Of a stretch of 64,000 bases of DNA, positions 2,656-34,175 are shown piece by piece. Positions within the stretch are counted from its first letter, which is position 1. Each line of letters begins with the position of its first letter. The stretch spans positions 158,245 through 222,244 of the forward strand of contig CAYOLO010000001.1 in the NCBI GenBank assembly GCA_964404855.1, written 5' to 3'. The notes beneath the pieces are model-generated. The model saw nothing but the letters and a program-made list of their open reading frames with translations. It was not told the origin of the DNA and did no database searches. The translations under genes were made by a program, and so were the position numbers. This DNA is from an uncultured Gammaproteobacteria bacterium (GTDB taxonomy: Bacteria; Patescibacteriota; Microgenomatia; CAYQLK01).

Positions 2656-3681
2656 TCAGTTAACTACAGCTTCGACTGCGAGTTGAATTAGGTACGATTG
2701 TCCATCGTTAGATAGTGCGTTACCTGTAAAGATATAAAAAGGGTAAATTGTTTCAGGATTTTTGGTGGTTGGGTGAAAATAGGCTATTTCTACAGAGTTG
2801 ATTGATATGGTTTTGTAATTAGTAACATAATAAGCCTCTTCATCGGTTTTTGTGCCTAATATTTTTTTGATTTGAGTGATTGTTGATTGGTTGTTTAATA
2901 GTTTATTGACTGCCTGTTGTGAAGAGATAAAAACGATTTTTTCTTTGGTTTGATAAGTGGGGTTAACCAAAGCAAAACTAGTAATATTTCCAGATGTGTC
3001 AAGGGAAATTGTGCCAACTGACAGGTTCGGAGTGCGGTCGGTGGATATAGGGATGTTGTTTATTTTATTTAGAATATAAAAAGTGACCGTGTCGGCAGAA
3101 TTATAGTCAGTAATTGGCTGATCGTTTTGGTTGGTTGATAAATAAAACTCAGGCTCAGAGAGTGTGTGGTTTGGGTTCGGTGAAAGAGTAGCAAGAGCGG
3201 TTTTTGCGTTATTTATAATATTTTCGATTGGTATTCTTTGGGGGGAAGAGATTTGGGGGCTGCGGTAAGTTATTGTTAAATCGTCAATTGTAAGTGTGCG
3301 GTTTTGATCAACAAAGACCTTTCTAGTGCCAAGGTCCGTTAATAACTCTCTAAAATTTTGCGAGTCAAAATTAAAAAAGCTAGATATTTTGCTTGTGTCT
3401 TGAGGGGTTTTTGTGATGTTAGCACTGAAAATATTTTCAGGTGCTACAAATGCTGAAATTTGTTCTCCAATTTGATATTTTTGCGGCTTGTTAGCGAAAG
3501 GATCATTGTCAGGTTGAGAATTTTTTGGGATAGATGTCTCTTGTGGTGTGATTGGCGGGGTTTCTTTTTGAGAAGGATTGAGAACTAGATACAGAAGAAT
3601 AAAAAGTAAAATAAAGCCAGCAAAAAAGAAGAATATCCAGTATTTTCCAAACTTGGTTTTAAGGTCTGTAAGTGTCATTGT
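2656..3681 (-). CDS. Membrane-anchored Pro/Thr/Gln-rich extracytoplasmic protein (hypothetical; last gene of the T4SS-like operon)
   Basis: N-terminal TM helix (YWIFFFFAGFILLFILLYLVL) followed by a low-complexity P/T/Q-rich linker and a ~250-aa domain. Start chosen at internal Met (MTLTDLK) so that it abuts the stop of the upstream gene at 3684; the track start 3702 would overlap by 19 nt. Confidence 0.5.
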   Translation of the reverse strand, partial: TMTLTDLKTKFGKYWIFFFFAGFILLFILLYLVLNPSQKETPPITPQETSIPKNSQPDNDPFANKPQKYQIGEQISAFVAPENIFSANITKTPQDTSKISSFFNFDSQNFRELLTDLGTRKVFVDQNRTLTIDDLTITYRSPQISSPQRIPIENIINNAKTALATLSPNPNHTLSEPEFYLSTNQNDQPITDYNSADTVTFYILNKINNIPISTDRTPNLSVGTISLDTSGNITSFALVNPTYQTKEKIVFISSQQAVNKLLNNQSTITQIKKILGTKTDEEAYYVTNYKTISINSVEIAYFHPTTKNPETIYPFYIFTGNALSNDGQSYLIQLAVEAVVN

Positions 3682-3683
3682 TT

Positions 3684-6600
3684 TTAGTTTACTCCTGCAC
3701 AACTTCCTGCACAGGCACGAACATCGACTGGTATGTAGGGTGGCTCCATTCGAAGCCCGCGAAATTCATAGTGAAGGTGGGTGCCACGAATATCGGGAGG
3801 CAGAATATATCCAGTATATCCTTCGTAGCCGATTACTTGGCCTTTTGTAACAACTGTTCCCACTTCGATTCCGCTACCAAATGAGTCTAGATGGCCATAG
3901 ATAGCTTGAAACGCTACACCATTACAGGTGCCGCTGAGAATAACTGTCAGTCCGGTTCTACCTGTGATTGGGTGGCTGGCATTAGGATCGGAATATTTGT
4001 ATTGAACAATTCCGTTAAAACTAGCCAATAAACTGTCGGTGTAAAAAGTGCCAATGTCGATGGCTTCTAGTGATTGGTGCGAGATATTTGCCCCTGGACC
4101 TTGGGTGACACTGCCTGATCCGGCGACTGGCCAGCCGGATGGACAATCTCCAGCGGGAGTGCCAATAAACACACTTGAAAGGTCGTTGGCTGTAGAAGAT
4201 ACTGAGTTACTAAACCCTCCGCTTGGGAGTGGAGATGGAGTTATTAGTGGGTCGAAGGATTTAAAATTTATAGAGAATTTATTACTAATGCTGGAGTCCT
4301 CGAAGATGGTTTCGTTGGGAATATTTAGACTGTAGTTAATATTGGTTGACTGATTAGGGTTTAGTGTGGCTGGACAAGTAATAGTTGGTGGTGTAAGCGA
4401 GCGGACTGTGCCGTTTTTGGTGGTGTGGGTGATTGTGTCTGAACAAACTATGTCGTAAACGGGTTGGTTGCCGGCGGTAATACTCACAGAATAGGTAATT
4501 GTTTGTGGAAGGTCAGAGTTTTCTAAATTAATGGTTTTGGCTGGTCCGAGTGATTTATTAGGAGCACTGACCAGTTTTTGGATTTGAATATAGGCGTTGC
4601 CAGATTCGCCTTCGGTGGCATCGCCAGGTAAGACAATTTGCTCTGGAAGGCTGGGGTTGGTAAATAATGCTGAGGAAACCGTGTTGTAGCTTAGTACCGA
4701 AAAAGCTGTGACCCCCCCGAGCGTAGCAGCGGGAATAAGAACCGCAGGACTAGTTGCAACTGTGACGGCAGTACTGGCACCACTACTTAATAATCCTCCA
4801 AGGCTGGATAGTCCTCCACCAATAAGACCAACGGCGCCACTGCCTACCCCACCTAAAAACGAGGCAGTTGCACTTAAAGCACCCCAAGCAGAGGCGATCC
4901 AACCGATTGGTGCGGTAACTACTCCCCATAATTTGGGTAAACTAAGGAGTACGTTGTCGACGAATGCTGCGTAAGGCGGAAAATGACTATATAGCCAAAC
5001 TGAAGCTGTGCCTCCCAAAAAACCACCAATTAGGGCGCCGATTGGTCCTCCAAGCATAAAACCAATTGCTGCACCAACCGCAAAACCGATGATAAATGCA
5101 GCAATTTGGGTTAGTAGCCAAAGGAACAATAAATAAGCCAAAAATGCGAGCATGGCGGCAATATAGGCAATTTTTTTCTTGTATTTGAGTATTAAAGCTA
5201 GGGCAATTTGTGCAACTAATGATGTGCCGCCTGTGGCTGCACCAAGTGCAGCGGAAAGTCCAACTTTGGCTGCGACTTTACCTGCACCTTTTTTAGCAAA
5301 ACCTTTGAGTTTACCTTTGGCGCGACTAGCGGAGAATTTTTGTGAAAAATTAAAATATGATTTTTTGGGAATGAAATTAGTTGATCTAGTGATAGTTTGT
5401 CCGGCAGAACTTTGTGAGTAGTAAGATCTTGAAAAACCACCCATTCTCCAGACTGAGCGCTTGTTTGGATTTTGAAACTGAGGAATTTGTTCGTAAAGTT
5501 CTAATTCATCAGAGTAGTTTTTGAGAAGAATTGCTTCGCCAGCTGAAACAGAGCCTCTGCCTTTTAGTTCTTTGGTGCTACGGCTAAGAAAAGACTGTCT
5601 TTGGGGTGAGGGTTGAAGAGTTTCGGTTAAAAAATCCTCATACCCTTCCTTTTGTCTCTTGGGGTTTTCCATTAGTGATGCAAAAGCGTGATTTTGCGCT
5701 GCTTCAGCTTCAGCTGGTGCAACCGCTTGTTGGCCTTGAGCATAGATATTGATAGGTTGGAGGATTTCTCTACTTATGGTGTCTGTAACAAAACGGGGAG
5801 CGGCTTGGGTTAGAAGAGTTTTGTCTTCAAGTTTGCCGTCTAGGTGTTTAAGTAGGGAGTTAAAACTTTGTTCTTGAGCATCGTTTAGATTTTGAAGAAA
5901 CCTTTCTGGTTGGAGTGGAATATTTTTTTCAAAATCATCTGTAGTTGTGTCAAGAACCCTTTGAGCAATATTGGGCAAAAAAACTTGCTGGATTGCCGCA
6001 GAAACAACAAGTTTGTTTTGGGAAGTGTTGGTGCTGGGGTTGATTTTTAAGGCAGTACTAACCGCGTTGTCGATAATTTCTGTGTGGGTGGTTGGTGCTG
6101 ATTTAGGATCGGTTAGGGTATTAATTAATAAAACTTGTGAGGCAACATTTGCTTGTGAGATTGCTGGGAAGTTGGCCTCTGAAGATTGGTCAACAGCCAC
6201 TAAAAACTCTTCAGACTTAACAAGGTTGCTCGCTTGTTTGGCTGTCTCTGGTTCTTTGGCTACTGCCTCATAAATTTCTGATGCAATGACTGGTGACAAT
6301 TCTTGATAATCTGCGGTGTGGGTAGAATAAACAATATTAGAAGCAACCGCATCTGATATTTTACCTACAAGTCTTTCTTGGTTGGCGGCATCTATTTTGG
6401 TTTTAAAAATTGTGGCGGAAATTTCTGGTGAGAGAATTATTTGTTTAATCGAGGTAGCGACTTCTTTGTGGGTGAGATTAACTGTGTCTTCTAGTTTTTT
6501 AACAGTAGCTGCTTTTTTTGTTTTAGCTTCGTTTGAATATGGTTTTTCTATTGTTGAACTTGAGGAGGGAGAAACTGGAAGTGTGATTGTTGGTTGCGGG

Positions 6601-7181
6601 GATTTTGAGGTTGGGGTGATGGGTTGCTGTATTGGTTGAGGAGAACTTGGCAGATTAAGGCTGGCTTCTGGTTCGGTTTGGGAGGGAGTATTGATTTTAA
6701 TGGTTTTTGGTAACTCTATTGCAGGAGGAAGATTTTCGGCGGCTTTTTCCTGACGAATTTTTTGTATTACAGCGTCAACTTCTTCGATTGTGGCGAGGCC
6801 GCTTGTAGGTAATTTGGCTTGGTCTTTGTTAGTTTTGGAAATAATTGGTATGGCGGCCAAATTTGAGATTTCGAGTTCTTTGAGATCATTTTCAATAAGT
6901 GAGGAAAAAATTTGTCTAAGAACAAGAATGTTTTGACCAATATCGGCAATTTTGTATTGGTCGGCAATATTTTGAATTGAAATTAATGTTTGTTCGTAGT
7001 TGGCACCTGGAAAGAGGTCTAAAAATTTTTTATTGAACTCCTCTTCGGTTGGGAATCTTGGGGGAAGGTTTTTGGTAGCAGATTTTTCAAAAAAATCTAA
7101 AGTCCAGTCTGCCAACCGAAACTGTAGTAATTGATCTAAAGCATTTTGGGGTTTGGTGGTTGTTTCGGGTGTAGTTGGCAT
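3684..7181 (-). CDS. Large polytopic membrane protein with C-terminal M23 (LytM) peptidoglycan endopeptidase domain; T4SS-associated cell-wall hydrolase candidate (functional analogue of VirB1/PrgK/TcpG)
   Basis: 1165 aa. Residues ~550–720 form at least six hydrophobic Gly/Ala-rich helices. The extreme C-terminus ...VVTKGQVIGYEGYTGYILPPDIRGTHLHYEFRGLRMEPPYIP carries the M23 family HxH zinc-binding motif with preceding GYTG. An N-terminal ~540-aa helical domain is Pro-rich. Sits between VirB4 and the operon end. Confidence 0.65.
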   Translation of the reverse strand: MPTTPETTTKPQNALDQLLQFRLADWTLDFFEKSATKNLPPRFPTEEEFNKKFLDLFPGANYEQTLISIQNIADQYKIADIGQNILVLRQIFSSLIENDLKELEISNLAAIPIISKTNKDQAKLPTSGLATIEEVDAVIQKIRQEKAAENLPPAIELPKTIKINTPSQTEPEASLNLPSSPQPIQQPITPTSKSPQPTITLPVSPSSSSTIEKPYSNEAKTKKAATVKKLEDTVNLTHKEVATSIKQIILSPEISATIFKTKIDAANQERLVGKISDAVASNIVYSTHTADYQELSPVIASEIYEAVAKEPETAKQASNLVKSEEFLVAVDQSSEANFPAISQANVASQVLLINTLTDPKSAPTTHTEIIDNAVSTALKINPSTNTSQNKLVVSAAIQQVFLPNIAQRVLDTTTDDFEKNIPLQPERFLQNLNDAQEQSFNSLLKHLDGKLEDKTLLTQAAPRFVTDTISREILQPINIYAQGQQAVAPAEAEAAQNHAFASLMENPKRQKEGYEDFLTETLQPSPQRQSFLSRSTKELKGRGSVSAGEAILLKNYSDELELYEQIPQFQNPNKRSVWRMGGFSRSYYSQSSAGQTITRSTNFIPKKSYFNFSQKFSASRAKGKLKGFAKKGAGKVAAKVGLSAALGAATGGTSLVAQIALALILKYKKKIAYIAAMLAFLAYLLFLWLLTQIAAFIIGFAVGAAIGFMLGGPIGALIGGFLGGTASVWLYSHFPPYAAFVDNVLLSLPKLWGVVTAPIGWIASAWGALSATASFLGGVGSGAVGLIGGGLSSLGGLLSSGASTAVTVATSPAVLIPAATLGGVTAFSVLSYNTVSSALFTNPSLPEQIVLPGDATEGESGNAYIQIQKLVSAPNKSLGPAKTINLENSDLPQTITYSVSITAGNQPVYDIVCSDTITHTTKNGTVRSLTPPTITCPATLNPNQSTNINYSLNIPNETIFEDSSISNKFSINFKSFDPLITPSPLPSGGFSNSVSSTANDLSSVFIGTPAGDCPSGWPVAGSGSVTQGPGANISHQSLEAIDIGTFYTDSLLASFNGIVQYKYSDPNASHPITGRTGLTVILSGTCNGVAFQAIYGHLDSFGSGIEVGTVVTKGQVIGYEGYTGYILPPDIRGTHLHYEFRGLRMEPPYIPVDVRACAGSCAGVN

Positions 7182-7243: not shown

Positions 7244-9106
7244 TTAAATGATTTCTTGCGAAGCAGATGAAAGTGGCACGTTTGAGGTGTTAGAATCTTG
7301 GTTTTGGGCAGCAGCAGCATTTTGCATTTCTAAAACCTCCTTAGGATTACTGGTGACAAGTTGATGTTCTTCTGGTGAGCCAACCACAAGCATTGCCACG
7401 TGTGAACTTCCTGCAAAAAACAACCCCTCACCGACATTTGCAGCTAGAAGTAAGTGTTTTTCTCCATCTGAGAGATAAAATACCTCGGCAAGCTTGTCGA
7501 TAGCTGCTGCAGACTGTTTAAGGAGGATTTGAATACTTGAGTTGGTCACGATAGCCTTGCCATATTCTGTGCCCAAGAAGTCCTCGACATCCTGAGTAAT
7601 CGTGGTTAATCCTAGATAATATTTACGAGCACGTTTGGCGATTGAGTACATAAACGTAGCAGAATCAGGATATTGCATCATATACCAAGCCTCATCGACT
7701 ATAAGTATGCGCTTTTTGAGGTCTCTTTTAACACGAGTCCATATAAAGTCGAGAATAATATACATAGCTATTGGGCGCAGTTCGGCTTCAAGGTTTTTGA
7801 TACTAAAAACTGTAAATGTGTTGTGAATATCTAGATTGGAGTATTGGTCGAATATTCCAACTAAAGAACCTTTGACAAACTTTTCGATTCTTTCAGCAAG
7901 GGTTTTGGCTTGAGGTTCTTCCATGCCAATTAAAGCCTTATATAAATCTTCCATTAATGGTGGTTGAAGTGTTTGGGTTTGTGGATCGGCAGTAATGCCC
8001 TTATTTTTGTAAGCAAGTACTAAAGCACGGTCGAGAATTGCATCTTCTGTGGCGGAAAGTTGTCCCATAATGACTCTGAAAAGTCCGTGAAGCGAGAGGA
8101 TTTTGAGATTTAACTCGTTTTCTCCTTCTTCATAGACACCAGAAAGATCGAAAGGGTTAATTTTTGTTTCTGAGTTGAAGTCGAAGCTAATATATTCTCC
8201 ACCTATGGCGGTACAGAGATTTTTGTACTCTTCTTCTGGATCAATAATAATAACTTCGGTGCCAAACATTAGATATCTTAGGGCTTCAAGCTTGGTCATA
8301 TAGGATTTACCGCCTCCGGACTTAGCAAAAACGACGGTATTGGCATTTTCGAGTGAAAATCTGTCAAAGATGATTAGTGATCCGTTGTGTCTATTAATGC
8401 CATACATAATTCCCTCGTTGCTGGTTAAGGAGCTTGATGTGAAAGGAAAAGTTGTGGCTAAAGACGTAGTATCCATGTTTCTGGTAACGAGAAGCTTGTC
8501 GTGGCCGTATGGGAGAGTGGTTTTGAAACCGTCTTCTTGTTGAAGAGTGGCGTGTTTAGAAATAACTAGAATGGAACCAAGCAGACTTTCAACTTGTTTG
8601 GTGATATTGACTAGCTCCTCTTTTGATTCGGCAGGAATAGTGATATAGAGCCCGAACTGAAAAAACTTTTCGGCACCTTTGGCTAGATCTTGTTGAAAGT
8701 TGCGTGCGTCATCTAGGGTAACTTCAAGACTAGGATCAATAACTTTGCCGCGTTGAATATCGGTAGAAATAGTTGCCTCCATTTCTCCAATTTTGCGTTT
8801 CATGTCTTGAAGCACTGCTTGAGCGTCAACTGGATAATGGAACATTGAGATTTCGAGCGTGTGATTAAAATTAATAAGAGGTGAAAGCCAGTTGGCTCCG
8901 ACATACCTGGGGTAGCCAATTACAAAAAGTGTTTTAAAGTAAGTCTCGCCGATTTTTATAAAATCGAAATCGACCTCAATTGCTGGAGGGGCAATGATAT
9001 CTCTAACCGAAACTGTGCCTTGGGCCACTGCTTTGGCTTGAGCAGATACGAGCTGTGGAGCGTTTTGAGGGCTTTGATTAGGGTCTTTTTTGCCAAATAG
9101 TTTCAT
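7244..9106 (-). CDS. virB4: Type IV secretion ATPase VirB4/TrbE/CagE family
   Basis: 620 aa. Walker A FAKSGGGKSYMTKL, Walker B RILIVDEAWYMMQ, and an N-terminal VirB4 domain pattern (DIIAPPAIEVDFDFIKIGETYFKTLFVIGYPRYVGANWLSPL). Start overlaps the upstream gene stop (ATGA at 9103–9106), suggesting translational coupling. Confidence 0.9.
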   Translation of the reverse strand: MKLFGKKDPNQSPQNAPQLVSAQAKAVAQGTVSVRDIIAPPAIEVDFDFIKIGETYFKTLFVIGYPRYVGANWLSPLINFNHTLEISMFHYPVDAQAVLQDMKRKIGEMEATISTDIQRGKVIDPSLEVTLDDARNFQQDLAKGAEKFFQFGLYITIPAESKEELVNITKQVESLLGSILVISKHATLQQEDGFKTTLPYGHDKLLVTRNMDTTSLATTFPFTSSSLTSNEGIMYGINRHNGSLIIFDRFSLENANTVVFAKSGGGKSYMTKLEALRYLMFGTEVIIIDPEEEYKNLCTAIGGEYISFDFNSETKINPFDLSGVYEEGENELNLKILSLHGLFRVIMGQLSATEDAILDRALVLAYKNKGITADPQTQTLQPPLMEDLYKALIGMEEPQAKTLAERIEKFVKGSLVGIFDQYSNLDIHNTFTVFSIKNLEAELRPIAMYIILDFIWTRVKRDLKKRILIVDEAWYMMQYPDSATFMYSIAKRARKYYLGLTTITQDVEDFLGTEYGKAIVTNSSIQILLKQSAAAIDKLAEVFYLSDGEKHLLLAANVGEGLFFAGSSHVAMLVVGSPEEHQLVTSNPKEVLEMQNAAAAQNQDSNTSNVPLSSASQEII

Positions 9107-10206
9107 GATTGTCCTCCGTTTCCTGATGGTGATTTTAGGGCATTTAGAGCCTTTAAGATATCTGGATCAATAGTATTACTGTTGGTTAAGTCGTCACTGC
9201 TGTTCGGTTGTGGTGCCATTGTTGTTGGTTGAGGTTGGGGTGTGTTAATTACCGATGGAATAGTGGGAATTTGTGAGGCTGGTTCTGGAATAGGAGAGGT
9301 TTGGGGGGTAACCACAGATGCCGCTGTTTGATTGAGAGGATTGGCAGCTATGGGGGGTGCTTGAACCGCAGGGTTAGGGGCGTAGATGGTTTGTTGTGGT
9401 CCAGCGGGTGGAGCAGGTTGAGGCTGTGGGGTATATAAGGGTTGGGTTTGGGCAGTTTGAGGCTCGACAGGCTGTGGTTCTGGTTGAACTGGAGAGGCAA
9501 TTGAGGTTGTTGCTTGGTTTTCTTCAACAATCGGAGCTGAGACTGCTGGCGAAACGATGGGTGATGTGTATGAGCCTGCTGATTCAATTATTTTTTGCAA
9601 TCCAACCTCACTAGGGTTGTAGATGTCAAAATAAAGCTCGATTAGTTCTTGTGTGGTCAATTGTTTTGATTTGATACCAATACGGCCGAATTGTTGAACA
9701 AGATGGTCACGTTTGGGGTAGAGACTTGTTTTGACCATGTCAATAAAACCTTGAGTGTGGGTATTGTCCTTTTGAATATTGCCAAGGGCGGCACCTTTGA
9801 CACCCAACTCGAGCGGATTAAATGGAATAACCACGTAGAATTTTTTTTCTAGAACGTTGTTTTGTTGAACAACGGTTTGAATAAATTGTCGATATTGAAA
9901 AATCTGCCTTTTGATGTCCGGGTTGGCTTGATGGGTTTCTGCTTGAGTGATTAATTGCAGGTAGTTACTGAGGTCAATTTTTTTACTACGAACAACGATT
10001 TGAATAGTGAAATTTAAGGAGTTGAGAAGTCCAGCGTACGAGTAAATAATTGAGTCCTGTTCGTCGACAGAGAGAAGTTCGAAATTAATAGCGGCAGTTT
10101 GAATAATAATCGTGGCCGAATTGTCTTTGAGGATTACAACATCATCACGGATATCGCTGATTTCTAGGTGTTCTTGAGTTGATGATTTAATCGGGGCAGA
10201 TTTCAT
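9103..10206 (-). CDS. Hypothetical T4SS-associated protein: N-terminal ~200-aa domain resembling a VirB4 N-terminal domain (no ATPase motifs) fused to a Pro/Gln-rich low-complexity tail
   Basis: N-terminus ISDIRDDVVILKDNSATIIIQTAAINFELLSVDEQDSIIYSYAGLLNSL resembles VirB4/TraC N-domain patterns (dG..a.lev.g.nf.l.s.eEq...f...LnsL). C-terminal ~130 aa is PQPEPQPVEPQ...-type low complexity. No Walker motifs. Confidence 0.4.
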   Translation of the reverse strand: MKSAPIKSSTQEHLEISDIRDDVVILKDNSATIIIQTAAINFELLSVDEQDSIIYSYAGLLNSLNFTIQIVVRSKKIDLSNYLQLITQAETHQANPDIKRQIFQYRQFIQTVVQQNNVLEKKFYVVIPFNPLELGVKGAALGNIQKDNTHTQGFIDMVKTSLYPKRDHLVQQFGRIGIKSKQLTTQELIELYFDIYNPSEVGLQKIIESAGSYTSPIVSPAVSAPIVEENQATTSIASPVQPEPQPVEPQTAQTQPLYTPQPQPAPPAGPQQTIYAPNPAVQAPPIAANPLNQTAASVVTPQTSPIPEPASQIPTIPSVINTPQPQPTTMAPQPNSSDDLTNSNTIDPDILKALNALKSPSGNGGQS

Positions 10207-10207
10207 C

Positions 10208-12241
10208 TTAATTTTGTAAGTTTTTAGCAGTTATTGCGAAAGGATCAAGAAGCTGACCTTTGGCTTCGAAGGCAATTGTATCAAAGTTTAAGCCGTCAAA
10301 ATCGGTTTGAATTGTGTATTTTCCGTTAGCTAAGGGAGTAACAGATATAAATTGCCCAAGACCGTTGGTTTTAAAAGCACGAACTGGCTTGCCAGAAGTA
10401 TCAAATACGGAAATTAGTGCACCTTGAACTAGTTCTCCATTACTGTTGTAAACAATGCCATTGGGTGTGTTGGGGTGTTCAGATAGGTTGATTTTTATTT
10501 CTGCTTTTGGAGCTGCTTTGGCCTGAGTGGATTGATAATTAAATGGCTGCACGACACCGCCGTGTTTTTGGTCGCGATTTTCATTTGGTTCAGCTTTGGT
10601 TGGTTGAGCTGTTTGGTGACTATCACTAGTGGTAGGTTTGTTGAGGTTAGGACTAGGTGGAGGGGCAAAGTCCTTAGAATCTTTTTCGGAAATTTTTCCA
10701 GCTTTAATTGGTTCAAAATCTTTAACTTTTTTGATTTCCTCTATGGCAATTCCACCAGCAATACTACCCATTTGGATGGGTTTTTGTGGCTGTGGTTCGG
10801 GGTTTTCGAAGCGTTTTTTGAGTTCTTTGCTGATATCAAATTGTCTTTCGCCCAAGATTGGCAACCTACCCTTGGAGAAGTCGGGTGGGCGGGTTTTGAG
10901 TTTGCGAATACGAGTATCGCCTATTCCCTGCATGAATTGGATTTGATTACCAGGGATGGCGATAACATTGCCTCCAAAATTAATATCGGAGGCAATTTGT
11001 GCAGCAATTGAAGTTTGGCTGTTTACGGTTGAAAAATTACTGGATGGTAGAGGTGAGACGACTGTTTTTTTGCCAACATTGGGAAGTAAATGTTTTTGGA
11101 ACATGTCGGGGGTTGAGGTGTTAAACCCGCCATTTTCTGCAAGACTTTTGTTTTTCTTAAAATCTTCCCATGCTGTAGAGAATTTTTCCTGCTCCTTTTG
11201 AATACTGGCTTGTTGGCGGAGAATTTCTTGTTCCTTGGCTTTTATTTCTGCCTCAATTTGTTGTTGAGAGCGTAATATTTCGTCTAGTTCAGCAAGTTTT
11301 TGTTTGGACTCTTCAGTTGGGGCTGTAGGTTGATTCTGGGGAGTTTTCAGGTTGACTGAGGCCTCTGGTGTTAGTGGTAGGACCTTAATTTCACGATTAG
11401 GGTTAAGGTTTGCGGGGGTAGAATAAGCATCTGGGCCTTTGTTAATTAATGAAACTTCTGGAGTTTGGCTTTGTGGGTTGGTTAGTTTTTGACTAAGCAG
11501 GTTGAGCTTCTTTTGTTTTTCTTCCTCGAGTTTTATTTTAGAAGTTTCTAAGGCTTTTTGTTTTTCGATTAAAGCTAATTCTTGAGCTTTGATTTCTTCC
11601 TCTTTAGCTTTAAGTTCGGCTGGTTTGGGAGCAGCCTGAGTGGTTGTTCTGATGTTTTGGATTGGTTGTTGATACGGAGAGAAAGGATTTTGATTAATGC
11701 CTTGGTTTTGGGGAGGAGGGGCGTTGGTGGCCTTGACTGTTGATTCGAGGCTAGCGATTTGAGCTAAGAATTGACTTTCTTTTTGGTCAAAAGGGTTAAC
11801 TATTGATGAATGTGACTGTCTGGCAAGCAGTGTTTGAAGTTCTGATCTGCTGATTCTAGCTGGCATTACTGAGGAAGAAACCTGCTGAATGGGGGCAGAT
11901 TTGAGGAAATTAGCTTCTAGAAAATAAGGTACGTGGTTATCCTTGATCCAAATTCTTTGGGTGGGTCTAGTGATAGAGCGGAAAAAAGCAACAATCCACT
12001 TGTCTAATGGTCTTCCCTGTAAAGGAACTGCAGCAAAAACAATTCCAAGTAAAACAAATAGTCCTCCGACAATATATGAAAATGTTTTGGGAAGAGGGGA
12101 AAAATAAAAAACGGCGCCAATTATTCCACCTATTGCGACATAGATAAACTGGCGGATTGTAAATGGTCCGAAGAGTTTGAACTCAAACGTGGTAATGTTT
12201 TGCGGTACTGCATGCTCTTCCATAGCTATTTTGCCTGCCAA
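10208..12241 (-). CDS. PrgI/VirB3-like membrane protein fused to long coiled-coil and C-terminal beta-sandwich (carboxypeptidase-regulatory/Big-like) domain
   Basis: N-terminus AVPQNITTFEFKLFGPFTIRQFIYVAIGGIIGAVFYFSPLP... matches the PrgI-family signature (vPkdL..fk.k.ffgLT.RQ + two TM helices). A coiled coil follows (AELKAKEEEIKAQELALIEKQKALETSKIKLEEEKQKK). C-terminus GIVYNSNGELVQGALISVFDTSGKPVRAFKTNGLGQFISVTPLANGKYTIQTDFDGLNFD looks like a CarboxypepD_reg-type fold. First gene of the minus-strand operon. Confidence 0.5.
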   Translation of the reverse strand: MAGKIAMEEHAVPQNITTFEFKLFGPFTIRQFIYVAIGGIIGAVFYFSPLPKTFSYIVGGLFVLLGIVFAAVPLQGRPLDKWIVAFFRSITRPTQRIWIKDNHVPYFLEANFLKSAPIQQVSSSVMPARISRSELQTLLARQSHSSIVNPFDQKESQFLAQIASLESTVKATNAPPPQNQGINQNPFSPYQQPIQNIRTTTQAAPKPAELKAKEEEIKAQELALIEKQKALETSKIKLEEEKQKKLNLLSQKLTNPQSQTPEVSLINKGPDAYSTPANLNPNREIKVLPLTPEASVNLKTPQNQPTAPTEESKQKLAELDEILRSQQQIEAEIKAKEQEILRQQASIQKEQEKFSTAWEDFKKNKSLAENGGFNTSTPDMFQKHLLPNVGKKTVVSPLPSSNFSTVNSQTSIAAQIASDINFGGNVIAIPGNQIQFMQGIGDTRIRKLKTRPPDFSKGRLPILGERQFDISKELKKRFENPEPQPQKPIQMGSIAGGIAIEEIKKVKDFEPIKAGKISEKDSKDFAPPPSPNLNKPTTSDSHQTAQPTKAEPNENRDQKHGGVVQPFNYQSTQAKAAPKAEIKINLSEHPNTPNGIVYNSNGELVQGALISVFDTSGKPVRAFKTNGLGQFISVTPLANGKYTIQTDFDGLNFDTIAFEAKGQLLDPFAITAKNLQN

Positions 12242-14757: not shown

Positions 14758-16467
14758 TTACGGTCTTCTGCGACTGAATGGGTTAGCTGATCTTTGGGCT
14801 TGTGTTGAAGCTTGTTGAGGTGTGGTTGACGGACCAGCAGGTCCAGGTCTGCCTGGTGTAATTGGTGAAGATGCACCTGGGGTACTTGAAAGCCTATCAT
14901 ATCTTCTTTGTGAACTCCAAGGATTAAATGTGTTACTTAGTTTTTCGCCAGCAAAATCACTAGTTCTAGCTTTGGCTCTGGTGGCTGCACCATTAAATGG
15001 TTGTCTAGCCATACCTAATCCTGCGCCTGCAACAGCGCCAGCCGCACCACCAATTGTTCCACCAATTCCGCCACCTTTGACTTTGAATGAATCCTGAGCG
15101 ATTTTGGCTGCGGATGGTACGCCTAATAGAATGCCAATACCAATTAAAGACTTAAGAGCGTTAGCACCTTCTTCATTAGTAAACCCACCGAGAAGCGGAG
15201 CATTCCACCCCTCACCTTCAGTAATCGTAGCTTCACCAGAGGTAATCCTGTCTTTGCCCACACCCATAAAATAGGCAGCAAAGATAATCATAAGTATGGT
15301 GATTACAAAAGTGGCAAGTTGGGCGGCAATATTTCGAATCCAAGGACCAAAGCCCGGCATGCCTGGAATAACGCCGATTCCAATCATAAGGGGACCAAAA
15401 ATTGTGTAAAAGAATACTTTGACGTAGGCCATAAGTAGCATAAAAAATATGCGGAATGTGGCTACAAGCATCATAATTCCAATCACGGCAACGGCTAGAG
15501 CAGAAAGGATACTTGAGCTGAATTTTTCGATCAAGTCAGGCAAGCCAAAGTTATCGATTGCACCAGCTATAATATCGTCGCTGCTGTGGAATATGCCTGA
15601 AATATTTTCAAGGAATAATTCTTTAAGCATAAATGTGAAAACGTTGTTTTCGTAATAGATTCCATTGGAATTAGGTTGGGCTACGCTTTCGCTCGAGAGA
15701 ATTTGAATCATAACGGCGATAAAAAAGTTCATTAGATCAATCATTAGTCCGACGATTGCATAGGAGAAGGTAACGAGGATTAAACTAATTACTATTTTTG
15801 GTAATACCGCTTGGACTGAAGCAACAGAGCTTGAACTTAGTCTCTGGCGGAAAATAATCATAAAACCAATGACAATAAAAAAGATGACATAGAGAAGAAG
15901 TGTGAGGTTGCGGAAGGTGGTCCATAAGGCTTGGGTTGGTTTGAGCGCGTCGTAGCCTGTTTGAGCAGCTAAAGTTTCGCCGGTAATTTTTGATTTAAGA
16001 TCGGCAAGATATTGCACACCCGAAGCCGGTTCTTCAGTGTAAAGCATAGCGATGCTTTTCATTAAAAATGGCACTGCGGCTCCGGTTCGACAATTGGTTC
16101 CACCACCACTTATACATTCGAGTTCTGCTTCGGTTGATGGAAGGCCAGTTATTTGGCGGTTGATACCAAAAGCCAGATTGTCCATAAGGCCTAGGTTGAA
16201 TTTTTGAAGATTCACGTCGTCTTCGTCGAGAGCGTTTTTGTACTGACAAATTGATTGTTGATATGGTTGGACAGTATCGCCTATACCAGGATGGGGATTA
16301 GAAATACCAACAGGACTGCCAGCTGGAGGAGGGGGAGAGCCAGCGGCTTCTTCCTCACACCCAAACGGATCTTCGGCTTGAGCAAGAACAGGCGACGAAT
16401 TAAAGCTAAAAAAAATTGAGAAAAGGCTGAATATTATAAAAATTGGCAGAACGATCTTAAGACGCAT
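14758..16467 (-). CDS. VirB6/TrbL-like polytopic inner-membrane T4SS channel protein
   Basis: 569 aa. Signal peptide (MRLKIVLPIFIIFSLFSIFFSFNSSPVLAQA), ~130-aa Cys-containing extracytoplasmic domain, at least 6 TM helices, then a Gly/Pro-rich C-terminal tail (GGGIGGTIGGAAGAVAGAG...PGRPGPAGPSTTPQQ). This is the architecture typical of TrbL/VirB6. Confidence 0.6.
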   Translation of the reverse strand: MRLKIVLPIFIIFSLFSIFFSFNSSPVLAQAEDPFGCEEEAAGSPPPPAGSPVGISNPHPGIGDTVQPYQQSICQYKNALDEDDVNLQKFNLGLMDNLAFGINRQITGLPSTEAELECISGGGTNCRTGAAVPFLMKSIAMLYTEEPASGVQYLADLKSKITGETLAAQTGYDALKPTQALWTTFRNLTLLLYVIFFIVIGFMIIFRQRLSSSSVASVQAVLPKIVISLILVTFSYAIVGLMIDLMNFFIAVMIQILSSESVAQPNSNGIYYENNVFTFMLKELFLENISGIFHSSDDIIAGAIDNFGLPDLIEKFSSSILSALAVAVIGIMMLVATFRIFFMLLMAYVKVFFYTIFGPLMIGIGVIPGMPGFGPWIRNIAAQLATFVITILMIIFAAYFMGVGKDRITSGEATITEGEGWNAPLLGGFTNEEGANALKSLIGIGILLGVPSAAKIAQDSFKVKGGGIGGTIGGAAGAVAGAGLGMARQPFNGAATRAKARTSDFAGEKLSNTFNPWSSQRRYDRLSSTPGASSPITPGRPGPAGPSTTPQQASTQAQRSANPFSRRRP

Positions 16468-17745: not shown

Positions 17746-18150
17746 TTAACACTGTGTATTTTCCGGTGTGTAGTCGAGTAGATTGATTCCCGTAACGAGT
17801 TCTAGGGATTTAAAGATAGCGTAAATAAGTAACAACACAACTACTCCGATTAGGGCGGTCATTATTGCACTCCTAGCTGAGGCTGCGCCTTGCGGATTGC
17901 CGAAGGAAAATATGTATTTGTAGCCTGCGTAGATAAGCATGACAAAAAACCCAATTCCAGCTGCGGGGGCGATAATTTTTATGGCTTTGGCGATAATATC
18001 AATTAGGTCGCAAAGCTGAGAAGGTTCTTCGCTTCCTCCACCAATTGGACCTGGACCGCCTCCAGCGGCCGCAAACACTCCCTGATTAAGGGCTAAAAAT
18101 AAAATTGAATAAAATAAAGAAATTGCGAGAGATTTTTTGTTCATTGTCAC
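17746..18150 (-). CDS. VirB2/TrbC-like pilin paralog 6
   Basis: 134 aa. Signal peptide, then two hydrophobic helices separated by the motif ...SFGNPQGAASARSAIMTALIGVVVLLL shared with the five upstream paralogs. Confidence 0.6.
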   Translation of the reverse strand: MTMNKKSLAISLFYSILFLALNQGVFAAAGGGPGPIGGGSEEPSQLCDLIDIIAKAIKIIAPAAGIGFFVMLIYAGYKYIFSFGNPQGAASARSAIMTALIGVVVLLLIYAIFKSLELVTGINLLDYTPENTQC

Positions 18151-18259
18151 TAGTTAATTAAATAATACCAGTTAATCAAATTGTAAATCCAAACAATATC
18201 GACCTGGAAAGTATTTAGTACTCCAGGTCGATATTGGAAGAAACTTTTTCCTAATCTTT

Positions 18260-18634
18260 TTACAGAGTTGGAATAGTGAAGTTGTCTCCAGTAATAATGC
18301 TGACTCCAAGAATGGTTTGGACAAGCATAATTAAGGCTAAGGCCAAAACTACAACCACCAACCCAACGAGTGCGTGAATTACTTGATTTCTGGCGGCTGC
18401 AACTTTTCCTGGGTCACCACTGGAAAGAATCCATTTGATACCACCAATTAATAGCCAGATAAAAGCAATAAGGAATGCAGCAAAAATAATCATTTGAATC
18501 ACAAAGCTGAGGATTGCTCCTGGTTCAGCTACGTTGACATTGTATGGATTAAGCTGAATTTCGTCTGCAAACGCTGCTGTAGAACTAGCAATAGTCCCGA
18601 CAACTGAGGATGATACGGCAATTAACTTTTTTAT
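18260..18634 (-). CDS. VirB2/TrbC-like pilin paralog 5 (N-terminus extended beyond the annotated ATG; non-canonical start)
   Basis: Track ORF 18260–18502 starts MIQMIIFAAF. The same frame stays open upstream to a TGA at 18641–18643 and encodes a textbook signal peptide IKKLIAVSSSVVGTIASSTAAFA|DE. A strong SD AAGGGGGTGA (revcomp of 18641–18650) lies 6 nt upstream of an ATA codon at 18632–18634. No ATG/GTG/TTG is available before the signal peptide. Confidence 0.5.
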   Translation of the reverse strand: MKKLIAVSSSVVGTIASSTAAFADEIQLNPYNVNVAEPGAILSFVIQMIIFAAFLIAFIWLLIGGIKWILSSGDPGKVAAARNQVIHALVGLVVVVLALALIMLVQTILGVSIITGDNFTIPTL

Positions 18635-18660
18635 AACGACTCACCCCCTTTCAAGGTTTT

Positions 18661-19107
18661 TTAGAACGGAAGTTCTGGACTAGTAATAGAGCCTGCGTTT
18701 AGGCTAAAGATGTTTTCAACAAGAGTCAAAATAGAAAAAGCTAGGATAATTACAATAAGGCCAATTATTGCGTAGGTGATTTTTTTCTGAGCGGCAGCGG
18801 TTTTTGCTGGCTCACCATTACTGGTAATGTAACTGATACCTGCGAGTAGTAGCCAAATAAAAGCCATAACAAAACCTGCAAACATTAGGATTTTTATGGC
18901 GAATGTAATGATTTTTCCAACATCAGAAGCTTCGGTTGGAATACCGGCTGGAGGGCAGATTTCCCCTAGAGGATTTTGGTCAGTACCTTGAGATCCTGTT
19001 GAACAAGCAGCAATTACATTGGCTGCAGAAATAGCTAGCATTATTAATATTCCTGGAAAAACAAAAATTGCTTGTTTGAATGTAGATTTTATGTGAAAAA
19101 GCGACAT
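18661..19107 (-). CDS. VirB2/TrbC-like pilin paralog 4
   Basis: 148 aa. Signal peptide (ILIMLAISAANVIAACS) and conserved core FIWLLLAGISYITSNGEPAKTAAAQKKITYAIIGLIVIILAF. Confidence 0.6.
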   Translation of the reverse strand: MSLFHIKSTFKQAIFVFPGILIMLAISAANVIAACSTGSQGTDQNPLGEICPPAGIPTEASDVGKIITFAIKILMFAGFVMAFIWLLLAGISYITSNGEPAKTAAAQKKITYAIIGLIVIILAFSILTLVENIFSLNAGSITSPELPF

Positions 19108-19108
19108 T

Positions 19109-19441
19109 TTAAAGATTGGGATTATTAATAAATAGTGCCTGTACTGTATACATTATCACAAAAGTTAGAATCAAAAGGATCATACCGATGACTGCATATG
19201 TGATTGAATTTTTTGCAGCTGCAGTCTTATTTGGATCACCACCAGAGGTAATAAATTTGATACCCCCGAGGATTAAAAAAATGACGGTAAAAATTGCACC
19301 AAGGCCAAATATAATCGATAAGAAAATAGTACCAATGTCGCCAACTGATTGAAAGTTTTCTGCGGGTTGGAACTCTTCGTTAATGTTGAGCCCCAGAAGG
19401 GGTAAGGAGCTTAGTGGTAATAATATTTTTTTAGGTGACAT
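19109..19441 (-). CDS. VirB2/TrbC-like pilin paralog 3
   Basis: Core FLILGGIKFITSGGDPNKTAAAKNSITYAVIGMILLILTF. Start taken at internal Met MSPKKILLPL (19441), which overlaps the upstream stop by 11 nt instead of 38 nt. Confidence 0.55.
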   Translation of the reverse strand: MSPKKILLPLSSLPLLGLNINEEFQPAENFQSVGDIGTIFLSIIFGLGAIFTVIFLILGGIKFITSGGDPNKTAAAKNSITYAVIGMILLILTFVIMYTVQALFINNPNL

Positions 19442-19763
19442 AAACGTTAAGAATTGATTGTGAAACAAATGCGGTTAATGCCCAAGCTATGGAAATAATA
19501 ACCAGGCCGATTACAGCATTAATTATCATAGATTTACCTCCCGCAACGCTGGCTGGATTGCCTCCGCTTAAAATTATTCGAAATGCGCCGATTGCTATAA
19601 GAATTATTGATACTAAAAAGGCAAAAGGAAAAACAAAATAAACCATTGCGTTACTAATAAATCCACCAACAGAGCTGGCTGAGCCACTGTTAAATTCAGT
19701 AATAGGATTACCGACACCTGATTCTCCGAGTCGGATTGCGATGTTTTTTGTTTCGCTTAACAT
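19431..19763 (-). CDS. VirB2/TrbC-like pilin paralog 2
   Basis: Core ILIAIGAFRIILSGGNPASVAGGKSMIINAVIGLVIISIAW. The start ATG shares its A with the TAA of the upstream gene (TAATG overlap at 19763). Confidence 0.55.
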   Translation of the reverse strand: MLSETKNIAIRLGESGVGNPITEFNSGSASSVGGFISNAMVYFVFPFAFLVSIILIAIGAFRIILSGGNPASVAGGKSMIINAVIGLVIISIAWALTAFVSQSILNVYVT

Positions 19764-20362
19764 TATGGTGTGTATATGTCGCTTGTAGCTTCTATGCCTG
19801 GAAGATTAAGAATATTAGCGCCAATTATTTCAAGAATAGTTACAGCAAAAACAATAAACAACAGACCAGAGATTGCCGAAATTATCATCTCTCGACCTGC
19901 GTTAATACCGCTTGGATTGCCAGCAGAAGTAACAATTTTAACTGCACCGAAGCCGGCGAGTATAAAAGCCACAACCGCTGCAATTGATATTGAGACGGTT
20001 AGGATTGTTGTAACAGTACTACCACCACTATCGCCTGTATCAAATTCTAGAACTCCTCCAATTGAACAGGTTGGGCTACATGGAATAGATGAGTCTCCAC
20101 CAGTGCCCCCACTACTATTTTCGCCAGATCCTACGCCTGCTCCGCCAGCTAATGCTGTTTCACATGAAGATTGGGAGTTGTAGTGTGGAAGGTCGCCTCC
20201 AAAAGTCGCAGAAATACAAGAAATTGTTCCACCAACGTTTCGAATAAACCAGTAGGTAGCAGCGTTGGTGGAATTTGTTGGCAGGAATGAGATAAGTACG
20301 AAATTAAATACTAAAAATAGTGATAATAAAAATGTTTTTAGGGCGAGATTGATTTTGGGCAT
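19763..20362 (-). CDS. VirB2/TrbC-like pilin paralog 1 with extended Gly/Ser/Cys-rich N-terminal extracellular region
   Basis: 199 aa. Signal peptide (FLLSLFLVFNFVLISFLPTNSTNA), four Cys, then core ILAGFGAVKIVTSAGNPSGINAGREMIISAISGLLFIVFAV. Confidence 0.55.
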   Translation of the reverse strand: MPKINLALKTFLLSLFLVFNFVLISFLPTNSTNAATYWFIRNVGGTISCISATFGGDLPHYNSQSSCETALAGGAGVGSGENSSGGTGGDSSIPCSPTCSIGGVLEFDTGDSGGSTVTTILTVSISIAAVVAFILAGFGAVKIVTSAGNPSGINAGREMIISAISGLLFIVFAVTILEIIGANILNLPGIEATSDIYTP

Positions 20363-23030: not shown

Positions 23031-23483
23031 GGGGATGTATTGCCTCGACGAAATAGCTCGTTAAAAACTGCAAGCCGAGTGATTCTAAATAACTCGCAAA
23101 ATATTTTTAGAAAAAATAACTGTCAGCAAAATTTCTGACAAAGTAAACGGTTCTCTTGCAGGATTGTTTGCTCCTCGTCCGTCTGCTTACGCTTTTGCCT
23201 AAGTTAGGCCGATAAGGACTTTAAATGGTTTTTCTCCAACGGAACTATTTAGGGTACAACTTAGTTGGAGTCAAAGCGCTCATTTGCTAATTATTGGGTA
23301 TGCGGAAAGATATTATTAATATCTCTTAATAAAGATATTTATAATTTAAATTAGATAGTTTTGACCTCTAACTTGTTAGTGAGACTAAGGGCTCAGAATG
23401 ATTTTTATAAACACTAACTACGCTTGTAGAAGTTTTTGTCGGAATATTATCGGACGCGGGTTCATAGCCCGCCATCTCCACCA
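23031..23483 (+). ncRNA. ssrA: tmRNA (SsrA), standard one-piece form
   Basis: 5' end GGGGATGTATTGCCTCGACG is close to the canonical GGGGCUGAUUCUGGAUUCGACG. 3' end GGACGCGGGTTCATAGCCCGCCATCTCCACCA gives a T-arm and an acceptor strand pairing with the 5' GGGGATG, with a G3:U70 pair and encoded CCA. An internal open frame ends ...NGSLAGLFAPRPSAYAFA-TAA (stop at 23200–23202), consistent with a tag peptide of the ...AYAxA class. smpB is encoded 2.7 kb downstream. Confidence 0.85.
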
Positions 23484-23504
23484 AAATATTTTAGATATTT
23501 ATCT

Positions 23505-23537
23505 AAACAAAAGGCTGCTCGAAATGAGCGGCTTTTT
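23505..23537 (+). terminator. Rho-independent terminator downstream of ssrA
   Basis: GGCTGCTC-GAAAT-GAGCGGC hairpin (7 bp, one G·U) followed by TTTTTTT. Confidence 0.55.
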
Positions 23538-23550
23538 TTGTGTGAACTTT

Positions 23551-29948: not shown

Positions 29949-30038
29949 GGAGGGGTCGCATAGTGGACTAGTGCGGTCGTCTTGAAAACGACTAAGGGTT
30001 TACGCCCTTCGAGAGTTCGAATCTCTCCCCCTCCGCCA
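29949..30038 (+). tRNA. tRNA-Ser (anticodon TGA), CCA encoded; attachment site of the downstream integrated element
   Basis: GGAGGGGTCGCATAGTGGACTAGTGCGGTCGTCTTGAAAACGACTAAGGGTTTACGCCCTTCGAGAGTTCGAATCTCTCCCCCTCCGCCA. Anticodon stem GTCGT/ACGAC, loop CTTGAAA, long variable arm. Confidence 0.85.
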
Positions 30039-31535: not shown

Positions 31536-31567
31536 ATTGTTTTGAAATTAGTTTTTGGGCAATCAAA

Positions 31568-31783
31568 GAAAAATACGCTCAACCTTTCGCCAAAGGCGAA
31601 AGAAAAAAGATTGGTTCGCAAAATTTCATTTTGCCAGAGCTTCGCTCTGCGAACTTCCGCATTGCCGACCGCACTTTGGTTTTGGATTTCAAAAATGCCT
31701 TCAAAATAGCGGAAAAATACCATGCCGAGGCGCTTTGCGCCGAGGCAACATCTTTCAATTTCGCTGAATGTAAAACTTGGCGG
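31568..31783. repeat. IR-1b: inverted copy of the recombinase 3' end located just upstream of the recombinase start
   Basis: Encodes in the + frame ...NFRIADRTLVLDFKNAFKIAEKYHAEALCAEATSFNFAECKTWR, identical to the recombinase C-terminus. Carries a 33-nt insertion (31615–31647). A different hairpin ctttcgcc-aaa-ggcgaaag sits at the position of the IR-1a hairpin. Confidence 0.8.
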
Positions 31784-32120: not shown

Positions 32121-32280
32121 GATGTTGCACTTGACCCACCCAACCCATTCGCGGGCAACGTTAAGGAACTCCCTAAAGATTCATTTACAAAATTGTTTAA
32201 ATTAGTTATCATTATAGTATCAAGAAAGAAACCTTTATATTATATTCTATATACTATAATGTTATATAATTAGAAAAGAT

Positions 32281-32484: not shown

Positions 32485-32486
32485 TT

Positions 32487-33269: not shown

Positions 33270-33271
33270 TT

Positions 33272-34171: not shown

Positions 34172-34175
34172 AATT

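Follow-up and report, generated by a model that had tools for sequence, protein, structure and literature searches.

The type IV secretion systems (T4SSs) of Patescibacteria have an MPF_FATA-like VirB4, PrgI, TrsD and arrays of VirB2-like pilins; their loci often lie beside dnaA/dnaN and mostly have no relaxase, and VirB6 homologues that hidden Markov models (HMMs) can detect are scarce in Microgenomatia (Quinonero-Coronel et al. 2025, PMC12102498). In the cultivated relative Southlakia epibionticum ML1, the T4SS cluster SEML1_0006-0019 is essential, and the T4SS is required for epibiotic growth (Wang et al. 2023, PMC10633639). The peptidase encoded directly downstream of virB4 is itself essential in this organism (PMC12102498). 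SEML1_0007 (3342 nucleotides, 1113 amino acids) lies directly downstream of virB4 (SEML1_0008) and was essential at the later time points of transposon sequencing; residues 951-1105 of its product have a Hedgehog/DD-peptidase fold, and Foldseek matched the full-length protein to 'Peptidase M15B' and 'Peptidase M23 domain-containing' proteins of the candidate phyla radiation (PMC10633639 supplement). The VirB1-like enzymes of monoderm bacteria are membrane-anchored and carry extracellular SLT/muramidase and CHAP domains, and the LytM domain of PrgK reportedly has a regulatory and not a catalytic role (PMC12857230). Here we describe a gene that follows virB4 in a 64,000-nucleotide stretch of contig CAYOLO010000001.1 (assembly GCA_964404855.1), hereafter the window, and that encodes a large protein with an M23 peptidase domain at its C-terminus. 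We consider it probable that this protein serves a Patescibacteria-type (monoderm, MPF_FATA-like) T4SS of the ultra-small Candidatus Curtissbacteria as a peptidoglycan endopeptidase tethered to the system.

The gene resembles SEML1_0007 in its slot after virB4 near dnaA, in the size of its product (1165 against 1113 amino acids) and in encoding a C-terminal LAS-type peptidoglycan peptidase. It differs in the type of peptidase, which has an M15-like Hedgehog/DD-peptidase fold in Southlakia and is of the M23 type here, and in the next gene, which is SEML1_0006 (lysozyme, lysozyme and Cys-protease) in Southlakia and encodes a bitopic protein of ~340 amino acids, hereafter the partner, in the window. 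The observations on which we rely are the domain identities, the conservation of the catalytic residues, the taxonomy and the invariant gene order. We infer that the protein is enzymatically active, that its substrate is the cell's own wall, and that it contacts VirB4 or the partner. The gene and the parts of its product are as follows.

3684..7181, minus strand: whole open reading frame (ORF), putative T4SS-linked membrane-anchored M23 peptidase (ORF call, Pfam, homologues).
5262..7181, minus strand: N-terminal soluble all-helical region, residues 1-640, predicted to be cytoplasmic (no signal peptide, no Cys, helical in both models).
6537..6821, minus strand: Pro-rich disordered linker, residues 121-215 (14% Pro; predicted local distance difference test, pLDDT, below 50; least conserved segment).
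4668..5261, minus strand: Gly/Ala-rich hydrophobic block, residues 641-838, predicted glycine-zipper-type membrane helices (hydropathy, model, Gly-zipper Pfam matches in relatives).
4152..4604, minus strand: immunoglobulin (Ig)-like beta-sandwich spacer, residues ~860-1010, with conserved Cys913 and Cys936 (pLDDT ~90, Foldseek).
3687..4151, minus strand: M23 (LytM-type) metallopeptidase domain, residues 1011-1165 (Pfam, family profile, Foldseek).

The ORF listing of the window contained a single frame of 1165 codons plus stop, starting with ATG and running exactly from 3684 to 7181 on the minus strand. The initial annotation, which was made from the sequence alone, had already given this length and span, and to these we add the strand. 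A plus-strand reading of the same interval was ruled out, since that frame is riddled with stops. Nine database proteins that are 61-95% identical to the 1165-residue protein equal it in length and architecture, and the long ORF is therefore genuine and not an assembly or frameshift artefact.

Pfam recognized one domain in the protein, Peptidase_M23 (PF01551, residues 1040-1141, E 2.9e-8), with a score of 34.2 bits against a gathering cut-off of 28.7, and a scan of the protein against NCBIfam returned no match. The M23 domain that had been proposed at the C-terminus was thus upheld, and its HxH motif is H1135-L-H1137. An AlphaFold2 model of the whole protein (mean pLDDT 69) was built on an alignment of 47 diverse family members that are 20-30% identical to the query. 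The M23 part of the model (residues 1020-1165) had a pLDDT of ~90, as did residues 860-1165 taken together, and Foldseek matched the M23 part to ShyA, Csd3, lysostaphin, LytM, EnpA and the LytM domain of EnvC in the PDB (E 1e-6 to 1e-3, probability 1.0). The family profile matched the solved M23 enzymes Csd1, ShyA, zoocin A, lysostaphin and LytM with E values of 7e-18 to 1e-10, and every one of the 47 relatives gave a Peptidase_M23 match (best E 6e-21). The codons of the catalytic set lie at these positions.

4077-4079, minus strand: H1035.
4056-4058, minus strand: D1042.
3891-3893, minus strand: H1097.
3777-3779, minus strand: H1135.
3771-3773, minus strand: H1137.

D1042, H1097, H1135 and H1137 are the same in all 47 members, and H1035 is so in nearly all; Cys1013, Cys1157, Cys1161 and the motifs 'CPxGWP' and 'ITQGP' are also conserved, and Cys1086 is a further conserved cysteine of the domain. 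In alignments with zoocin A and Csd1, H1135-L-H1137 corresponds to their HLH motif and H1097 (in 'YGHL') to their YAHL motif. In the HMMER alignment with zoocin A, H1035 pairs with the histidine of HxxxD across a three-residue insertion and D1042 pairs with the aspartate. The spacing is H-x6-D in our protein, and it ranges from x6 to ~x12 among relatives, and the canonical M23B HxxxD is not matched. The initial description of the HxH motif as canonical stands; the first zinc-ligand motif is not of the canonical form. An M23 alignment, which had been proposed along with that description, shows a catalytic set that is apparently intact. M23A enzymes are set apart from M23B by disulfide bridges, an additional C-terminal subdomain and a His-Asp spacing that is longer and varies (PMC4356371), and our family has analogous traits in its sequence, namely the His-Asp spacing, the conserved cysteines and a C-terminal extension after HxH. 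Judged from these residues, the domain is probably active. Within the close clade, the M23 domain is the most conserved part of the protein and the Pro-rich linker the least.

We then measured the extent of the family with an exhaustive HMMER search, in which a clade profile was compared with 1.84 billion cluster representatives. It gave 844 matches at E<=1e-3 and 249 at E<=1e-10. These 249 representatives share the transmembrane (TM) block, the beta-sandwich and the M23 domain, and their N-termini are unrelated; the N-terminal 620 residues were matched by the query's own cluster only, and the other matches span residues ~620-1160. Word-indexed searches with the full protein and with the 47-sequence alignment returned the close clade only, probably because they were swamped by low-complexity Gly/Ala words. 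A C-terminal HxH was present in 148 of 149 representatives examined, and in 130 of those a hydrophobic block precedes the M23 domain. At least 150 amino acids precede the block in 107 of the 130 (median over all 130, 418 amino acids), and a median of 255 amino acids separates the end of the block from HxH. When the N-terminal regions of 108 representatives were clustered with phmmer, they fell into 31 clusters, in which the window clade is a singleton. There are also relatives of ~200 amino acids with the same M23 subfamily behind an N-terminal hydrophobic segment (P0016, P0064, P0104 and P0122), and further members of this size were recovered, one of which, from candidate division WWE3, is named 'membrane-bound metallopeptidase'. 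One 700-residue relative (P0046) keeps the TM block and the sandwich, and in place of the M23 domain it has a sequence with HESGH (zinc-protease-like) and EESHFS (possibly SLT-like). At the level of sequence this points to a modular exchange of the hydrolase domain, comparable to the M15-like fold in SEML1_0007. The M23 protein evolves faster than VirB4: the identities are 67% for the M23 protein and 91% for VirB4 in a locus of a close relative (L001), and ~30% against 62-69% in distant loci.

The orientation of the protein in the membrane was examined in the same family. A Kyte-Doolittle scan found three to four hydrophobic segments between residues 646 and 832, and AlphaFold2 placed membrane helices at residues ~655-764, with ~668-745 at moderate confidence (block-mean pLDDT ~69-86). 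Residues 750-858 are Gly/Ser-rich with a pLDDT below 50, with a helix at residues 818-838 toward the end. The initial annotation had counted at least six TM helices, a number that is not supported by the three to four segments in ~200 residues and by the low-confidence model of residues 750-858. In the 47 relatives, Pfam glycine-zipper families matched the block (Gly-zipper_Omp in six, YMGG in four and Rick_17kDa in one), and in a wider set of 130 relatives, 80 have GxxxGxxxG. In all 107 long members, the first 60 residues are free of hydrophobic segments. On average, the 30 residues before the block have a net charge of +3.5 and the 30 residues after it one of -1.0, and the sign of the difference is as expected in 100 of the 107. 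Cysteines occur at a density of 0.03 per 100 amino acids in the N-terminal regions and 2.16 in the C-terminal regions of the 149 representatives; all six cysteines of the window protein (913, 936, 1013, 1086, 1157 and 1161) come after the block. In two relatives, P0018 (residues 114-183) and P0031 (residues ~150-215), a DnaJ J-domain with its HPD motif lies N-terminal to the block, which suggests, from sequence, that DnaK may be recruited to a T4SS-linked protein. The missing N-terminal signal, the charge bias, the distribution of cysteines, the J-domain fusions and the N-terminal hydrophobic segment of the ~200-residue relatives strongly support an N-in/C-out topology, in which the N-terminus would be cytoplasmic and the sandwich and the M23 domain extracytoplasmic and disulfide-bonded. 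The number of membrane passes would therefore be odd, and three or five are plausible.

In the AlphaFold2 model, the predicted cytoplasmic region consists of helices at residues 14-118, a helical domain at residues 217-565 and a low-confidence Lys/Arg-rich segment at residues 573-660; a Lys/Arg-rich stretch directly precedes the membrane block. A helical, Pro-rich N-terminus of ~540 residues had been described before. Its helical character was retained, its length is ~620-640 residues, and only residues 121-215 are Pro-rich. The region has no Pfam, NCBIfam or PDB profile match and no Foldseek match in the PDB better than E 0.3, and a stand-alone model of it was poor (mean pLDDT 56). Comparison with the N-termini of 150 family representatives and with metagenome ORFs revealed no similarity, and its homologues are confined to the Curtissbacteria-like clade. 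On the other side of the block, the beta-rich region seen initially proved to be an Ig-like sandwich (pLDDT ~90), whose core at residues 865-1006 was modeled with high confidence. Its Foldseek matches in the PDB are Ig-like sandwiches of RhoGDI, UNC119 and a clostridial adhesin repeat, and DUF7507 of Pfam matches the sandwich in 6 of the 47 relatives.

With this anatomy, the protein can be set beside the known wall hydrolases. It shares with the VirB1-like hydrolases of monoderm T4SSs, such as PrgK, TraG, CwlT and TcpG, that its gene is in a T4SS cluster linked to virB4 and that, from its sequence, it has a predicted membrane anchor with the hydrolase outside. With PrgK of pCF10, which together with TraG of pIP501 belongs to the DELTA/ALPHA classes, it shares an MPF_FATA-type cluster, an intracellular N-terminal part, a membrane anchor, an extracellular hydrolase and a LytM domain. 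It differs from PrgK and TraG in that its sole hydrolase domain is M23, apparently catalytically intact, and in that it has a clade-specific intracellular region of ~640 residues and an Ig-like spacer. Its anchor is a glycine-zipper block of ~200 residues, whereas that of PrgK and TraG is presumably a single TM helix. We found no Pfam or NCBIfam match to SLT, muramidase, lysozyme, CHAP or NlpC/P60 in the protein, no such Pfam match in the 47 relatives and no such fold among the top Foldseek matches. The view that its organization differs from that of known T4SS wall hydrolases is therefore sustained, since it is without SLT, muramidase, CHAP and NlpC/P60 and has a large intracellular region and a multi-helix anchor. 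LasA and the beta-lytic M23A enzymes resemble the family in conserved cysteines that fit disulfides and in an extra C-terminal segment, and the profile matches LasA with E 2.5e-5; the best matches in sequence and fold, however, are the M23B enzymes Csd1, ShyA, zoocin A and lysostaphin. LasA-type enzymes are secreted and soluble, LasA itself being bacteriolytic, and they are not known to be polytopic or T4SS-linked. SpoIIQ is similar in concept only, as a membrane-anchored LytM protein in a cell-to-cell channel (profile match E 7.5e-10). This component of the sporulation 'feeding-tube' channel is small, has a single TM helix and a LytM domain that is degenerate in B. subtilis, and is not known to be linked to VirB4.

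The gene is embedded in a T4SS locus at one end of the window. The window opens on the plus strand with dnaA, which is cut by the window edge, dnaN (dnaA and dnaN at 78-2308) and a DciA-like gene. The minus strand carries, in this order, the partner gene, the M23 gene and the genes for VirB4, a TrsD/TraC-like protein and a PrgI/VirB3-like protein. VirB4 is encoded upstream of the M23 gene with a gap of 62 nucleotides, and the ATG of the partner gene lies 5 nucleotides past the M23 gene stop. A secreted protein of 405 amino acids is encoded beyond PrgI, alongside a polytopic 569-residue protein and the pilin genes. The T4SS genes are as follows.

2656..3678, minus strand: conserved partner, bitopic protein of ~340 amino acids with an N-terminal TM anchor (homologue in 25/25 loci).
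7244..9106, minus strand: VirB4 ATPase, CD1110/MPF_FATA-like (NF045971 conju_CD1110, 405.8 bits against a cut-off of 325).
9103..10206, minus strand: TrsD/TraC-like protein, 367 amino acids, a VirB4 N-domain-like module as a separate ORF (profile match).
10208..12241, minus strand: PrgI/VirB3-like protein with a long C-terminal extension (Pfam).
14758..16467, minus strand: polytopic 569-residue protein with a signal peptide, candidate divergent VirB6 (topology, conservation).
17746..20362, minus strand: array of five divergent VirB2-like T4SS pilin genes (PF18895).

The T4SS operon setting that had been noted for the protein was thus borne out by VirB4, the TrsD-like protein, PrgI and five T4SS_pilin genes nearby, and the locus has the layout of the Patescibacteria clade: VirB4, PrgI, TrsD-like protein and pilin array, on the chromosome and near dnaA. 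No terminator-like site was found on the minus strand from prgI to the partner gene. Among the ORFs scanned, which cover part of those in the window, there was no relaxase or coupling protein. The closest homologue's 90% cluster includes MBP6979622.1 of Candidatus Curtissbacteria (Patescibacteria group, Microgenomates), which is 93% identical to the window protein and which NCBI names 'peptidoglycan DD-metalloendopeptidase family protein'. The metagenome-assembled genome records of the closest relatives (L001-L004) carry the title 'uncultured Gammaproteobacteria bacterium'. Because of the 93%-identical Curtissbacteria protein and the Patescibacteria-specific layout of the locus, we rejected this label as a taxonomy; the records are probably mislabelled.

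Several of the neighbouring proteins have features of their own. The TrsD/TraC-like protein has a long Pro/Gln-rich tail, and in a distant relative the same module is fused to VirB4 in one protein of 860 amino acids (L011:2083-4665). The C-terminal extension of the PrgI/VirB3-like protein is ~580 residues long and includes a coiled-coil-like Lys/Glu-rich sequence and a CarboxypepD_reg-like beta-sandwich; PrgI is paired with CarboxypepD_reg in L011 too. The 569-residue protein has about six hydrophobic helices and a Gly-rich disordered tail, has no Pfam family and no PDB sequence match, and is kept at 25-33% identity in five distant T4SS loci (L007, L013, L014, L018 and L023). By its topology and conservation it is a better candidate for VirB6 than the M23 protein. 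In mid-cluster, the other strand (12472-14742, plus strand) encodes a soluble, helix-rich protein of 756 amino acids without a family match; it evolves very fast, with 37% identity in L001, where VirB4 is at 91%. At the edge of the locus, 20381-22117 (plus strand) encodes a membrane-anchored protein with a weak match to a PcsB-like coiled coil and a SpoIID domain (E 1e-15). It is divergently transcribed from the pilin array and is a second wall-remodelling enzyme at this locus.

We next asked how regularly the M23 gene is linked to virB4. A metagenome scan seeded on HLHYEF[RK][GDN] yielded 42 loci, 25 of them with full-domain matches, and the linkage figures refer to this subset of the family. 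In all 12 loci with upstream DNA, virB4 lay 10-314 nucleotides upstream of the M23 gene or overlapped it, and in 16 loci dnaN lay ~1.0-1.2 kb downstream (2.1 kb once). The same position of the gene was read in distant relatives: around P0011 (24% identity) the order is pilin, further genes, TraC-like, VirB4, the homologue and a gene for 357 residues, and around P0086 (21% identity) it is PrgI, a fused TraC-like::VirB4, the homologue, a gene for 337 residues, dnaN and dnaA. Among the distant loci, L007 and L011 have virB4 directly upstream of the M23 gene. An iterative profile search showed that the partner, of 326-363 amino acids with an N-terminal anchor, is homologous in 25 of 25 loci. A 12-sequence profile of it had no Pfam family and no PDB sequence match; it may regulate the peptidase or be an analogue of VirB8. 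Taken together, virB4, the TM-M23 gene and the partner gene are a conserved three-gene core of the Patescibacteria T4SS.

We propose the following course of events for a tethered endopeptidase. The M23 gene would be co-transcribed with prgI, trsD and virB4, and its product would insert in the membrane with the helical N-terminal region of ~640 residues in the cytoplasm. The glycine-zipper block would anchor the protein at the T4SS membrane complex and probably oligomerize there, and the Ig-like spacer would hold the disulfide-stabilized, zinc-dependent M23 (LAS-type) domain outside the membrane. There, the domain would cut peptide cross-links of the wall locally, so that the T4SS channel and the VirB2-like pilus could be built through the wall. 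The best reading by analogy is that the M23 protein would be a functional counterpart of VirB1, PrgK, TraG and CwlT, with a peptidase in place of a glycosidase. This class of component is already known in outline, and NCBI already names the 93%-identical protein a DD-metalloendopeptidase.

Several points weigh against this proposal. The canonical histidine four residues before the aspartate is absent, its place being taken by a leucine that is unconserved in the family. The LytM domain of PrgK reportedly regulates rather than cuts (PMC12857230). The membrane block is modeled in part, and the odd number of passes is deduced from the topology. For homology to SEML1_0007 beyond the peptidase domain, the source is a supplement table. 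Finally, the substrate could be the wall of a host rather than the cell's own.

The first alternative is that the protein is a VirB6-like translocon subunit fused with a wall hydrolase, in which the block would be the channel part and the M23 domain an appended VirB1 function. The gene comes directly after virB4 and is followed by the bitopic protein of ~340 residues, and this mirrors the order VirB4 - VirB6-like - hydrolase - VirB8-like, which we take to be that of Tn916 (orf16 to orf13) and ICEBs1 (conE, conG, cwlT). Glycine zippers, moreover, are common in oligomeric membrane channels. Like VirB6, TrbL, PrgH and Orf15 of Tn916, the protein is encoded beside virB4 and is a membrane protein that combines several hydrophobic helices with large hydrophilic domains, and the scarcity of HMM-detectable VirB6 in Microgenomatia (PMC12102498) also speaks for such a fusion. 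However, we detected no similarity to these proteins in sequence or fold, and its block is of glycine-zipper composition. None of 47 diverse family members matched TrbL/VirB6 (PF04610) or PrgH at E<=0.01, and neither a VirB6 fold nor the NTF2 fold of VirB8 was among the top 50 Foldseek matches in the PDB. The VirB6/VirB8-like role that had been suggested for the protein is not supported by these searches, nor by the sandwich, which is Ig-like. Half of the block is Gly/Ser-rich with a pLDDT below 50, some members have only one hydrophobic segment of 30-40 residues (in a crude Kyte-Doolittle scan, threshold 1.5), and a separate polytopic protein, that of 569 residues, is encoded in this locus and in distant ones. 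We regard the fusion as unlikely.

According to the second alternative, the M23 domain would act as a 'can-opener' that is directed at the host: placed at the T4SS, or released from it, where epibiont and host are in contact, it would cut the host's wall. Southlakia requires its T4SS to grow epibiotically (PMC10633639), and the M23 protein evolves much faster than VirB4. The family has M23A-like traits, namely variable His-Asp spacing and disulfides, and LasA belongs to that subfamily; its catalytic module is also exchangeable, being M15-like in Southlakia and replaced in P0046 by another C-terminus on the same TM and Ig parts. Yet the large hydrophobic block would anchor the protein in the epibiont's own membrane, we identified no processing site in the M23 protein, and the Ig spacer and M23 domain are short relative to two cell walls. 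In monoderm T4SSs, the wall on which membrane-tethered hydrolases act is that of the donor itself (PMC12857230). An attack on the host's wall therefore seems to us a doubtful explanation.

A broader proposal is that the protein is a trans-envelope subunit that couples the recruitment of substrates (or of the DnaK chaperone) to VirB4, channel formation and the opening of the host wall. The N-terminal domain, which is hypervariable and has a J-domain in some relatives, could then be a docking platform and the block part of the conduit, and the exchangeable peptidase (M23, M15-like in Southlakia, and others) could be matched to the chemistry of the host's peptidoglycan. As background to this proposal, Patescibacteria T4SSs mostly have no recognizable relaxase, and Southlakia also has no recognizable coupling protein. 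We find it rather improbable as a whole.

The protein could also be a non-catalytic LytM scaffold or regulator, comparable to EnvC, NlpD, SpoIIQ of B. subtilis and the LytM domain of PrgK, which would bind peptidoglycan or a partner hydrolase or form part of an extracellular stalk. The lack of the canonical HxxxD spacing, the regulatory LytM domain of PrgK (PMC12857230), the matches of the family profile to SpoIIQ (E 7.5e-10) and EnvC, and the SpoIID-type enzyme encoded at the locus edge are all compatible with such a role. Csd2, a degenerate LytM factor, has lost its motif histidines (PMC4356371). Our family is unlike it: in 47 distant members, four of the five residues never vary and the fifth hardly does. 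A long His-Asp spacing, moreover, is found in active M23A enzymes (PMC4356371). We regard a non-catalytic role as decidedly unlikely. That the protein is an ordinary housekeeping M23 autolysin for growth or division, merely beside T4SS genes near the origin, is highly improbable despite its generic NCBI name and the many housekeeping genes of origin-proximal regions, because virB4 is adjacent in 12 of 12 informative loci and in L007 and L011 despite ~30% identity, the genes are tightly spaced with no terminator-like site, and the Southlakia counterpart lies within the T4SS cluster SEML1_0006-0019 (PMC10633639).

Elsewhere in the window, a transfer-messenger RNA gene (23031-23483, plus strand, 105 bits) overlaps the 5' end of a ComFC-like ORF (23398-24228, plus strand) with a double zinc ribbon and a phosphoribosyltransferase domain, and the true start of this ORF is probably further downstream. 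A large serine recombinase gene (30000-31535, minus strand) abuts a tRNA-Ser gene (29949-30038); beyond it are genes for a D12 adenine methyltransferase (34176-35249) and an AAA_13 ATPase (35267-37642). The region 29949-37642 is probably an integrated mobile or defence island.

The M23-bearing family to which the tethered endopeptidase belongs is large and uncharacterized, and so are its TM-sandwich module, its hypervariable cytoplasmic domain and the partner of ~340 residues. It combines a conserved extracellular module with a cytoplasmic domain that varies between clades. For experiments it offers an enzyme module (residues ~860-1165), a predicted topology and two uncharacterized conserved partners. 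Much of bacterial diversity belongs to the Patescibacteria, and in many of their lineages the operon regularly includes a gene for a membrane-anchored peptidase, always located between virB4 and the gene of a conserved partner. If the protein acts as we propose, the repertoire of wall remodelling by T4SSs would be widened from glycosidases to LAS-type peptidases.

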